The notes beneath the pieces were generated by a model. It was not told the origin of the DNA, searched no databases, and worked only from the letters and a program-made list of their open reading frames with translations. From positions 1 through 13,086 of IMG/VR virus record IMGVR_UViG_2713896897_000017: a stretch of DNA of 13,086 nucleotides; one strand, 5' to 3'. The stretch's first letter is position 1; the number at the start of each line of letters is the position of its first letter. A program made the position numbers and the translations under genes. Origin of the DNA: a virus (taxonomy: Duplodnaviria > Heunggongvirae > Uroviricota > Caudoviricetes). Of the stretch, positions 1,093 to 5,221 are shown piece after piece.

Positions 1093-2469
1093 TCATACGT
1101 CAGCCCCTTGTGCATATCGTCTGCCACGCGCAGCAGGTGCATTTGATGTTGTGCAAATCTGTCTGGCTTCATCCTGGTCACATGCAACAAAGTGTCCGTT
1201 GCAGAACCGCTGGTAAACCGTACCAAGCGAGCCAAAACGGTTTTTCGTCACGATGATTTCAGCAAATGGCGCGGCGCTACTGTTCTCGTCATATACCGCT
1301 TCCCGATAGAGCATGATGATTGAGTCTGCGTCCTGCTCAATGCTTCCTGAATCACGCAAATCTGCGTTTGTCGGGCGTTTGTTTGGTCGCTTCTCAACAT
1401 CGCGCGAAAGCTGACTCAGGGAGATAACAGGCGTTTTCAGGTCTTTCGCCATCGCCTTAAGGCTTCCTGAGATGTGAGCAATTGCGAGGTCGTTGCGGTC
1501 TGCTTTCGGCTTCTCAATAAGGCCAAGATAATCCGCCATGATGAGTGACAGGTTTGGATTTTCCTGTTTGTGCCGCTCTGCGATTGAGCGAATTTCTTCT
1601 ACCGATAACCGCGAGGCATCGACTACCCATACATCCAAATCTGCAAGCTGACTCATGCCGTTAGCAACACGCGCCCAGCCTTCGTCATCCATCGATGCAG
1701 GATTTCGCAGTACGCTAACCGACATCCTCCCGGCGTTGGCAATACTTCGCTCTGCAATCTGCAATGCGCTCATTTCCATTGAGAAAATCAATACTCCGCG
1801 CCGGACGTCAGAACCAGGAATAACACGACTTGCAACGCCTTCGGCAATCTTCAGCGCCAGTTCGGTTTTTCCCATACCAGGACGAGCGGCGATAATCACC
1901 AAGTCTTCTGCGTTCATCCCTCCGGTGATGGCGTCAAGTTCTTCGATTCCGGTCTTCAGGGTATCTGACTCTTCTCCGTTCCTCAGACGCCTGTCAAGCG
2001 TGTCAGTGTAGTCAGTAATGATTTCCCCTAACCGTACAGGTTTAACCTCGTCACGGGGCTTTCTGATGGCTGAAAGACGCTTTACAAGCTCGTCCATCGC
2101 CTGACTCGATGCGTCGATGGTTCCGCTCTGAATTGGTTCACGCATTTCATCCATGATTTCCAGCACCAGGCGGCGGTGATAGTTATCCGCGACCATTCCG
2201 GCATATCCCTTCAGGTTTGCGGCACTCGGGCAGTTTTTGCTGGTCATCAGGATTGAGGTGAAATGCTCCTCTCCGCACGCCTCGGCAACCATCAGAGCGT
2301 CGATTAGGTTCCTGTTTCTCGCCTGCTTACGGATAACTTCGAAGGCTTTCCGGTAGAGCGGAATTGAAAACGCTTCCGGCTCCAGCGTTGCAAGAACGTC
2401 ACTGGCGGTTGGAGTTAATCCACCAATCAGCAGGCCACCGATAACGCTCGCTTCGATATCCTGTCTCAT
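1093..2469 (-). CDS. Replicative DNA helicase, DnaB family (P22 gene-12-like)
   Basis: 458-aa ORF with Walker [18 protein letters not shown] and overall DnaB-like C-terminal RecA-fold region; start overlaps the stop of the O-like gene (coupled). Confidence 0.85.
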
Positions 2470-3287
2470 GCAATCCCCCTGTCTGCAAACTTCCCTTCCC
2501 GAACTCCCGTTAACGAGTCTTCTCTCAGCAGGTAATCAAAATCAGCCGTCCAGCCCGTGTCGTTGTCTCCGAAGTAAAACGGCTTGGCCTGATGCACAAA
2601 CGCCCTGACATACGCTCTGAAACCGTCCACGTTTGGCGTTTTCAGTTGCGGGATGATTTTCTTCAGGCGGCGTTTGCGTTTCTCGTTGACCGCAACAGCG
2701 TGTGGCAGTCTGTCACCGACTTCGGTGTTGTAGGCGTTCAGGAAGGATTCGTAGTCGATTCGTTCTGCCTTTCGACGTGCAGGTTTAACCCGCCCATCGC
2801 CTCCCCCATTGGGGGGTAGGGGGGTATTTGTATTTATTGTCTTTTGTATATTGTCTTTTGTGTTTAGCTGACTTGGCTTATACCCATTAGCCGACTCGGC
2901 TAATGTTTTATTAGCTGTTTTAGCTAATGTTAAGCTGTCCTGGCTAATCCACTGCGAAACCACCTTGTTCACTCCGATTTTCACGCCATCAGCAATGAGG
3001 AATTTACGCTCAATAAGCTGGCGCTTGGCTGCGCAAACATGAGTGTGATGAATACCTGTCATGGCTGCTATCTGCGTGTTTGTGAGTCGATCCATCGGCT
3101 TATTGAATCCGTATGTCTTGCGCATGATAGCGAGCATCACCTTCAACTGCCGGACAGTTAAATCAGCCATCAGCAGACTGTCGGTAATCTCGTTAGCAAC
3201 GCGCATGAAACCATCTTCGGTATCTGCCACGCGATGCTCCACGACCTCCAGTTGAGGCCTGTAATCAGCTAACTTAACGACGCCCAT
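2466..3287 (-). CDS. Replication initiator, lambda O-like (P22 gene-18-like)
   Basis: 273-aa ORF; the N-terminal domain aligns by eye with lambda O ([34 protein letters not shown] versus lambda ADLTKRQFKVLLAILRKTYGWNKPMDRITDSQLS); a low-complexity linker ([10 protein letters not shown]) is encoded over the repeat region. Confidence 0.85.
2836..2950. repeat. Candidate replication origin inside the O-like gene: tandem AT-rich direct repeats plus TTAGC/GCTAAT iteron-like repeats
   Basis: ATTGTCTTTTGT occurs twice (2836-2847 and 2850-2861); TTAGCTG or GCTAAT motifs recur at about 2864, 2887, 2899, 2911, 2921, 2943; preceded by a G tract (2811-2824). In lambda the ori iterons lie inside O. Confidence 0.5.
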
Positions 3288-3435
3288 GTTTCACTCCTGC
3301 TTTGGCTAGTCTGTAAACACCAACAAGGCTCTCTGCGAACGCCTTGTTATTTGCTGCGGCTACCACTAATCCCTCAGGTGAATCAGGGTGTCGAATCTCT
3401 TCTTTTTCCTGGTATTTCTTACGACGTTTTGTCAT
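3274..3435 (-). CDS. Hypothetical 53-aa protein between cII and the O-like gene
   Basis: Manual translation: [58 protein letters not shown] Shine-Dalgarno 6 nt upstream of the ATG; the stop overlaps the first codons of the O-like gene. Below the size cut-off of the supplied ORF track. Confidence 0.4.
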   Translation of the reverse strand: MTKRRKKYQEKEEIRHPDSPEGLVVAAANNKAFAESLVGVYRLAKAGVKHGRR

Positions 3436-3469
3436 AATTACTCCTGTGGATTGATCCAGTCTTTCTACA

Positions 3470-3751
3470 TCAGGCCTCGAAGAATTCGCCGTTCTTCGGG
3501 GCTTTTTCTTTTGTCAGGTAATCGGCAAGCCGCTTAGTCAGTTCAGCCATTTCATCGTCTTCGATTCCGTATTCCAGAACAGCCAGCATCATGCTTACCT
3601 GCGAGAAGAAACCATTCTTCCATCGGCTTACCTGGTATTCCGGAACTCCCATCGCGCGAGCGAATGTCTTCTGCCCCATCAGTGCCAGTTTGTTCAGCAA
3701 GGCTGACTCGATGCGAGCCGCTTTCTTGCTTTTAGTTGCAATAGTACCCAT
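3470..3751 (-). CDS. cII: CII-like transcriptional activator
   Basis: 93-aa ORF; recalled similarity to lambda CII (RIESALLNKLA...SRWK...FSQVSMMLAVLEYGIEDDEMAEL versus lambda RIESALLNKIA...SRWK...PKFSMLLAVLEWGVVDDDMARL); AAGGA RBS. Confidence 0.85.
   Translation of the reverse strand: MGTIATKSKKAARIESALLNKLALMGQKTFARAMGVPEYQVSRWKNGFFSQVSMMLAVLEYGIEDDEMAELTKRLADYLTKEKAPKNGEFFEA
3474..3510 (+). terminator. Rho-independent terminator antisense to the cII 3' end (oop-RNA-like)
   Basis: 11-bp stem GCCTCGAAGAA (3474-3484) / TTCTTCGGGGC (3492-3502) with one G-U pair and a 7-nt loop, followed by TTTTTCTTTTG. The T tract exists only on the plus strand. Same position as the lambda oop terminator. Confidence 0.6.
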
Positions 3752-3758
3752 ACATAAT
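3726..3758 (+). promoter_or_regulatory. PRE-like CII-dependent promoter (TTGC-N6-TTGC plus -10)
   Basis: TTGCTTTTAGTTGC at 3726-3739 is the CII-binding repeat, 13 nt before CATAAT (3753-3758); same architecture as lambda PRE, within the first codons of cII and pointing towards cI. Confidence 0.55.
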
Positions 3759-3828
3759 TTCCTTAATGATTAGATAGAGTTGGCTTCGCAAAGAAACGCA
3801 AAACCATAGAGATTTTTTTTCTGGTAAT

Positions 3829-3868: not shown

Positions 3869-5221
<1,353 letters not shown>

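Follow-up and report, generated by a model that had tools for sequence, protein, structure and literature searches.

A predicted oop RNA gene and an HK97 gp53-family gene on opposite strands between cII and the replication initiator of a lambdoid prophage

The stretch of DNA analysed here (13,086 nucleotides, hereafter the window) is from a lambdoid E. coli prophage, and around the interval between its cII gene and its O-like replication gene it holds a short open reading frame (ORF) on the minus strand and a hairpin followed by a T tract on the plus strand. The question raised by this locus is whether these are a protein gene and an antisense RNA gene, respectively, and, if so, whether the arrangement is a new one. 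The best phage relative over the whole window is HK446, and the 601-nt region from 3200 to 3800 shares 99.3% identity with a region of strain A3. The early-right operon is on the minus strand and is read in the order cro (3869–4087), cII (3470–3751), the 53-aa ORF, the O-like gene (2466–3287), a gene for a DnaB-type replicative helicase (1093–2469), further genes, and NinB (225–671), while the repressor gene cI (4188–4820) is on the plus strand, as is an N-like leftward operon. The cII homologue encodes 93 aa (Pfam Phage_CII, E = 4e-30; PHROG 191) and the O-like replication initiator 273 aa (Pfam Phage_rep_O, E = 6e-33; PHROG 345), with ori-like iterons inside its gene at 2863–2948 according to a repeat search; the helicase gene, with matches to Pfam DnaB_C (E = 1e-77) and DnaB, is the third of the replication cassette. 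Direct reading of the sequence also gives a CII-box motif of a PRE-type promoter, TTGC-N6-TTGC, on the plus strand at 3726–3739, i.e., within the 5' end of cII and directed at cro and cI, and the same motif is annotated in mEp213 and Sf6 at the corresponding position.

The interval between cII and the O-like gene runs from 3288 to 3469 and is 182 bp long, the length given in the earlier, sequence-only reading of this DNA. At a probability of roughly 85%, it is a copy of a conserved lambdoid junction in which an oop RNA gene and a gene of the HK97 gp53 family lie on opposite strands; this estimate covers the identity of the features only. Such a junction would join the immunity/cII module to the replication module.

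The 53-codon reading frame

The sequence-only reading described a 53-aa ORF on the minus strand with an AGGAG ribosome-binding site and a stop codon overlapping the first codons of the O-like gene, and both observations hold. The ORF occupies 3274–3435, its Shine-Dalgarno sequence AGGAG (3441–3445) lies 5 nt before the ATG, and its TAA (3276–3274) is found 11 nt past the ATG of the O-like gene (3287–3285), which gives a stop/start overlap of 14 nt (ATGGGCGTCGTTAA, 3274–3287, minus strand). The initiation region of the small ORF, AGGAGTnATTATGACAAA, is common to the start of lambda O in the alignment, and the small ORF would thus use the initiation region that serves O in lambda. The O-like gene has a Shine-Dalgarno sequence of its own, AGGAG at 3294–3298 on the minus strand, which is embedded in codons 46–48 of the small ORF 6 nt before the initiator ATG and is conserved as GGAG or GGGG in relatives. 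The same 14-nt geometry was found in 260 of 266 locus records, and in the related loci the initiator always starts with an MGVVKL-like sequence. A second class of initiator starts, at +34 to +46, was rejected as an artefact of the Shine-Dalgarno filter, the ATG at -14 being used in these loci too. From the overlap of stop and start it follows that the small ORF and the initiator gene are probably translationally coupled. The earlier proposal of an extra small basic protein coupled to the initiator therefore stands as far as a selected protein and the 14-nt overlap are concerned; the protein is "extra" relative to lambda only, and its coupling is deduced from geometry.

For the question of whether the frame encodes a protein, 263 related loci were taken from IMG/VR and the integrity of the ORF was scored over 266 locus records. 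In locus L162 an additional, rearranged copy of the ORF is present. Disruption of the 53-aa frame was looked for in these relatives, but no interrupted copy was seen and all 266 records contain an uninterrupted copy of 51–55 codons. The comparison of synonymous with nonsynonymous change that had been suggested as a check on the ORF was run across the relatives and indicates purifying selection, with a pooled pN/pS of 0.25 and a median pairwise dN/dS of 0.13 in the ORF frame (107 unique sequences), as opposed to dN/dS values of 1.6 and 2.7 in the two shifted frames. The predicted protein matches PHROG 1331 over its full length (E = 4.2e-36, residues 1–53 on profile positions 1–53 of 53), a family annotated as "unknown function."

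It is conceivable that the 53-codon frame does not specify a functional protein at all, and that it is kept open by overlapping DNA signals and is at most translated as a coupling leader. Part of the ORF is indeed constrained at the DNA level: the per-codon table shows zero synonymous variation in codons Y8–K11 (3403–3414 in plus-strand coordinates, TTTTTCCTGGTA), which fits a -35 region of the promoter pO embedded in the ORF, and the last five codons (49–53) are frozen where they lie over the initiator start. The product is also without a domain or a structural relative, its structural model is of low confidence, and the family has few members (30 representatives among 1.84 billion proteins). 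However, the same per-codon table allows protein-level constraint to be distinguished from DNA-level constraint. None of the known signals overlaps the central 30 codons, yet the invariant S, P, G, L, V, F, and A residues in this central part are each encoded by two to five different codons, the length of the ORF is held at 51–55 aa in all loci, and only in the ORF frame is dN/dS low, the values for the other frames being above 1.5. That the frame is an empty one is therefore very unlikely. The 53-aa ORF is under purifying selection at the protein level, and, as judged from the profile match, the annotated homologues, and the dN/dS values, it is a real coding gene that belongs to the HK97 gp53 family, with a product that is predicted.

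The small protein and its neighbours

Annotated homologues of the small protein are HK97 gp53, ST104 ORF27, the product of Sf6 gene 42 (gp42), and mEp213 gp55, along with E. coli entries in RefSeq that are named "hypothetical protein." Compared with the commonest allele, the window protein carries two substitutions, R31K and R36S, the second of which puts a serine in place of an arginine with 99% conservation across the family. The protein is basic and restricted to phages of Enterobacteriaceae. It matched no Pfam family at E ≤ 0.1 and no NCBIfam family, and a sequence-profile search of the PDB revealed no informative relative. Neither did a HMMER profile scan of 1.84 billion representative proteins, the 30 matches of which are tiny phage ORFs except for short alanine-rich coincidences in long proteins. 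The AlphaFold2 model has a pLDDT of 65, i.e., low confidence, and would place two helices (residues 20–29 and 31–49) behind a disordered basic N-terminus. Homology of the 53-aa protein to P22 orf48 was considered and rejected (hhalign probability 0.1%). Literature searches on what HK97 gp53, orf48, or a small ORF located between cII and O might do turned up descriptions of the layout only, and no ribosome-profiling or proteomic data for the gp53 family.

The small gene forms a mosaic unit separate from its neighbours: in 82 loci with an identical small protein, 10 terminator variants are found upstream and at least 3 different initiator N-domains downstream, an identical small protein occurs behind at least 5 oop/cII types, and in 52 of 238 loci the small protein is found behind a gene that is not CII. 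This variety of initiator N-domains and of oop/cII types argues against a partner-specific role. It also bears on the suggestion that the small protein takes part in the lysis-lysogeny switch, as a stabiliser or antagonist of CII in the manner of lambda CIII. Lambda CIII is an FtsH inhibitor of 54 aa, the small ORF is of similar size and located directly downstream of cII, and an amphipathic helix is predicted in its product. Against this, the identical protein is found next to different cII/oop types and to non-CII genes, it has zero Pfam matches at E ≤ 0.1, and its ORF is joined by overlap to the initiator. A part in the switch is accordingly quite improbable. As a candidate identity, a CIII-type FtsH inhibitor was rejected, no CIII profile match being obtained in Pfam (E ≤ 0.1) or NCBIfam.

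A somewhat better case, though still an unlikely one, can be made for an accessory protein aimed at the host or at its defences that is simply carried along in the early-right operon. A small, basic orphan protein which is confined to Enterobacteriaceae phages and is freely combined with different neighbours would suit such a role, and in P22 and L the same slot is filled by the unrelated orf48, as is often the case for slots that hold accessory genes. Accessory genes are, however, usually fast-evolving and often lost, whereas the small gene is present, intact, and strongly constrained in every locus, and is tied to the initiator by the 14-nt overlap. A role in replication has more in its favour than either of these alternatives. 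The 53-aa ORF is the first cistron of a three-gene cassette that encodes the small protein, the initiator, and a DnaB-type helicase, and such a helicase follows the initiator in 246 of 253 related loci. The best guess, to which less than even odds are given, is that the small protein is an accessory or regulatory factor that acts on the function or the dosage of the initiator and helicase.

The value of the locus that remains is a practical one, as it holds a strongly constrained small protein. Parts of the 601-nt region from cII to the start of O match 957 of 5426 complete E. coli genomes, and the small protein is found joined to the initiator in phages with a DnaB-type helicase of their own, Stx-converting phages included. 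This link to the initiator makes the small protein a cheap target for a knockout.

The plus-strand promoter, RNA, and terminator

On the plus strand there is a conserved 33-nt lambdoid box at 3428–3460 (TTTGTCATAATTACTCCTGTGGATTGATCCAGT), which is annotated in Sf6 as bsq5 and is 30/33 identical to lambda in the alignment, the -10 hexamer TTTGTCATAAT included. The box contains the -10 of the promoter pO, the complement of the ATG and Shine-Dalgarno sequence of the small ORF, and the 5' end of the predicted oop RNA. Identity to lambda extends to the TG upstream of the -10, so that the extended -10 (TGT-CATAAT, TGTCATAAT, 3430–3438) is identical to that of lambda pO; the CAT in it reads, on the other strand, as the ATG that starts the small ORF. 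The putative -35 region with a T-rich stretch upstream of it spans 3403–3415, embedded in codons 7–11 of the small ORF, and is proposed from constraint and spacing; the -35 proper would lie at about 3409–3415, in codons 7–9, with TGGTAT at 3410–3415 placed 17 nt from the -10. This hexamer agrees with the consensus at two of six positions, and a simple sigma-70 promoter scan did not call pO. The case for the promoter is a mixed one: the -35 is weak and uncalled by the consensus scan, but the -10 is that of lambda pO, which has been mapped experimentally (PMC3985674), and both the spacing and the constraint on synonymous sites are conserved. Of 93 unique segments, 82 have CCTGGT 19 nt upstream of the best -10 hexamer, and this N19 spacing is kept even in variants that have lost one codon of the ORF and have their -10 (TAAAAT) 3 nt more distant from the ATG. 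The nine segments without CCTGGT have TTGATA, TTGAAT, or TTGAAA at 16–17 nt instead. As a general observation, a -10-like hexamer opposite a ribosome-binding site comes cheaply, and antisense to the cII start the hexamer CATAAT is also present (3753–3758).

The sequence-only reading had further noted an 11-bp hairpin and T tract on the plus strand at 3474–3510, inside the 3' end of cII. This was borne out, with the hairpin core at 3474–3502, and the element can be extended to a tO-like intrinsic terminator at 3472–3512. A terminator scan gave a stem of 14 pairs, 6 of them G-C, with a loop of 5 (3472–3504), followed by TTTCTTTTGT in the T tract (3503–3512), all inside the last 13 codons of cII. 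For the 69-nt RNA from 3446 to 3514 the folding energy is -27.2 kcal/mol (z = -5.1), a value that was not equalled by any of 200 shuffles. A hairpin with a T-rich tail was present in each of the 260 related loci with enough flanking sequence, with energies from -12.5 to -24.2 kcal/mol and an end located 60–98 nt away from the position opposite the ORF start codon. As many as 78 distinct hairpins occur among these 260 loci. When base pairs were counted separately for each architecture, with dinucleotide shuffles as a control, 38 of 128 base pairs had two-sided compensatory changes within sets of hairpins that share one architecture, and a hairpin of -12.5 kcal/mol or better preceded a T tract in 166 of 166 unique segments versus 3.4% of the shuffles. 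Alignment of 57 terminator variants with MAFFT followed by RNAalifold gave no consensus structure, as stems of differing length were misaligned. The Rho-independent terminator is thus conserved as a structure.

A hairpin of this kind can form in the sense RNA too, and it might then act on the minus-strand transcript from pR, by stabilising the mRNA, by providing a site for RNase III, or by terminating transcription between cII and the replication genes. Lambdoid early-right operons do have terminators, and tR1 is annotated in Sf6. Such a use of the hairpin is nevertheless extremely unlikely here, because the U tract follows the stem on the plus strand only. CUGAUGUAG follows the stem on the minus strand, and with no U residues at this place the terminator works in one direction only. 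In addition, promoter box and 5' end share homology with lambda pO/oop, and sequencing has recovered a matching RNA from P22. Taken together, the plus strand from 3428 to 3512 has sequence homology both to lambda pO-oop-tO and to the oop RNA sequenced from P22.

The predicted oop-like antisense RNA extends from 3446 to 3512 and is about 63–67 nt long, as judged from the lambda alignment, the P22 oop RNA, and the fold. Its 5' end would be G3446 in the register of lambda or G3449 according to the 5' end of the P22 RNA found by RNA-seq. About 42 nt of it are, by construction, perfectly complementary to the 3' end of cII with the stop codon, and 24 nt to the spacer between cII and the small ORF. 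Searches of Rfam, both at the gathering threshold and at E ≤ 10, gave matches at chance level only; this database is without an oop family, and there is consequently no covariance-model score and no independent family score for the RNA.

How the locus works can be proposed by analogy with lambda, where the oop RNA lowers CII through RNase III-dependent cleavage of the duplex (Krinke and Wulff, 1987, as cited in passages of PMC7067206 and PMC13397905), and where transcription from pO opposes transcription from pR into the replication genes (PMC3985674). In the window, pO would drive an oop RNA of about 65 nt on the plus strand, which would start around 3446–3449 and stop at the tO hairpin and T tract within the last codons of cII. 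[quoted passage not shown] Convergent transcription from pO may at the same time dampen transcription from pR into the replication genes. The proposal that an oop-like antisense element lies over cII is thus borne out at the level of homology to lambda pO-oop-tO and to the P22 oop RNA. In related loci with a CII-like upstream ORF, the 3' end of the predicted RNA lies inside that ORF in 185 of 186. In the 52 related loci with an upstream gene other than cII, the promoter-terminator unit persists, and in 47 of these 52 the RNA would end before the upstream ORF and overlap no ORF any longer. From this persistence one may conjecture a job for pO-oop that is independent of cII. It is tempting to speculate that this job is to meter transcription from pR into the replication genes and that the gp53-family protein is itself a working part of the replication cassette, such as a helper or dosage regulator of the initiator or of the phage DnaB-type helicase, but the two propositions together are doubtful.

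Comparison with known systems

The locus has the placement and orientation with respect to cII and the next gene that are known from lambda pO-oop-tO, which gives a 77-nt OOP RNA antisense to cII. In lambda, too, the intrinsic terminator lies within the 3' end of cII and the CAT of the -10 pairs with the ATG that starts the next gene, and the lambda +1, G38675, corresponds to G3446 of the window. There are differences as well. The predicted oop RNA of the window is about 12 nt shorter than lambda OOP because stem-loop I is reduced, it overlaps cII by about 42 nt whereas lambda OOP overlaps it by 55 nt, and its terminator stem has a different sequence. The -35 is TGGTAT within the small ORF in the window and TTGAGT within O in lambda. 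The locus is a clean example of a promoter embedded in coding sequence, with the -35 region visible as a block of codons free of synonymous change.

The oop RNA of P22 has been recovered by small-RNA sequencing and is 63 nt long (GAUUGAUCCAGUCUUUCUACAUCAGGCCUC..., PMC13397905), and its nucleotides 1–30 are identical to window positions 3449–3478 (30/30), while its terminator stem has another sequence, through compensatory changes, but the same shape. An OOP RNA has also been detected by RNA-seq in the Salmonella prophage BTP1 (PMC7067206). The layout of P22 and L is that of the window, i.e., c1(cII), oop, a small ORF, the initiator, and a DnaB-type helicase, and their small ORF, orf48, likewise overlaps the initiator start, although its protein is unrelated to that of the window. 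In P22 and L the geometry CCTGGT-N19-CATAAT is shared with the window despite the unrelated small ORF, and in phage L terminators are annotated on the plus-equivalent strand at the same place.

For the protein, the closest known systems are HK97 gp53, Sf6 gene 42, ST104 ORF27, and mEp213 gp55, which agree with the window in the family over its full length, in the slot, and in the 14-nt overlap, and whose proteins show no difference of substance from that of the window. In Sf6 the 33-nt box that corresponds to 3428–3460 is annotated as "bsq5; boundary sequence," with no difference noted, and this box behaves as a recombination joint, since one allele of the small ORF is found with 10 terminator variants. 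Hayes et al. (2012; PMC3349717) described the layout cII-oop-orf-O-P and considered the 33-bp homology, and they also reported that the ORF between oop and the initiator is present in P22 (orf48) and HK97 (gp53 homologues, 162 nt) and absent in lambda. The locus was hence read correctly but was already known: the layout is standard and has been annotated in HK97-, Sf6-, P22-, and ST104-type phages. As a discovery it has slight value, since all three elements (small ORF, conserved box, and oop RNA) already carry annotations in relatives and the layout is in print, and what the window adds to these systems is one further member of the gp53 family, carrying R31K and R36S.

A probable promoter block within the small ORF

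In the 53-aa ORF between cII and the O-like initiator gene (window 3274-3435, minus strand), codons Y8-K11 show no synonymous variation in 77-100 sequences, whereas other two-fold codons vary 9-50%. On the plus strand this block (3403-3414) reads as the -35 region, placed within coding sequence, of the promoter predicted to give the oop-like antisense RNA. In relatives where the -10 (CATAAT in the window) has shifted by 3 nt and the ORF has lost one codon, the spacing CCTGGT-N19-(-10) is nevertheless retained, and orf48 of phages P22 and L, which is unrelated to the 53-aa ORF, carries the CCTGGT motif at identical spacing. CATAAT also occurs at 3753-3758 (plus strand), antisense to the cII ribosome-binding region, so a -10-like hexamer facing a start codon is weak evidence alone.

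In 52 of 238 related loci fetched from IMG/VR (L188-L223, L229-L266 and others), the small ORF is preceded by a gene whose product is not CII-like, being a protein of 180 aa that ends in MVTSMLGVM or one of 84 aa that begins MNHIEFIEKH. These loci retain the antisense promoter-terminator unit, but it ends short of the upstream ORF in 47 of the 52; in the cII-type loci it ends within that ORF in all but one of 186. This hints at a role for the unit that is independent of cII.

Variation and mosaic joints around the small ORF

The window protein differs from the commonest allele by two non-synonymous changes, Ser (AGC) at codon 36 (3328-3330, minus strand), where 99% of the family has Arg, and Lys at residue 31, which is Arg in most members. 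One locus (L162) has an additional small-ORF copy of 64 aa at 1270-1465, immediately upstream of the normal copy, with its 3' end swapped for a segment of the cII 3' end and oop terminator in another reading frame; it looks like a recombination scar at a boundary sequence.

The ten-residue N-terminus of the initiator (3258-3287, minus strand; about 1646-1680 in related loci) is common to at least three different initiator N-domains, namely an HK97 O-type, a lambda O-type and a 296-aa type in which HNPVQHQEASS follows directly, and there is thus a second mosaic joint just within the initiator gene. The GVVKL of this N-terminus may resemble the ClpX recognition motif at the lambda O N-terminus.

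Presumed origin, possible accessory gene and CII-binding motif

Within the O-like gene, four iteron-like repeats of about 20 nt follow the pattern TTAGCyG...GGCTAAT at 20-24 nt spacing and adjoin a T-rich repeated stretch, the whole (2833-2948) presumably being the replication origin. A 158-aa ORF (4745-5221, plus strand) sits where lambda has rex and overlaps the end of cI. Its match is PHROG 2651 (unknown function), an internal ATG starts a 16-residue hydrophobic stretch, and the ORF is possibly an accessory gene expressed in the lysogen. The 5' end of cII contains the motif that CII binds in a PRE-type promoter, TTGC-N6-TTGC (3726-3739, plus strand), oriented towards cro and cI, and the relatives mEp213 and Sf6 are annotated with a matching motif in the same part of cII.
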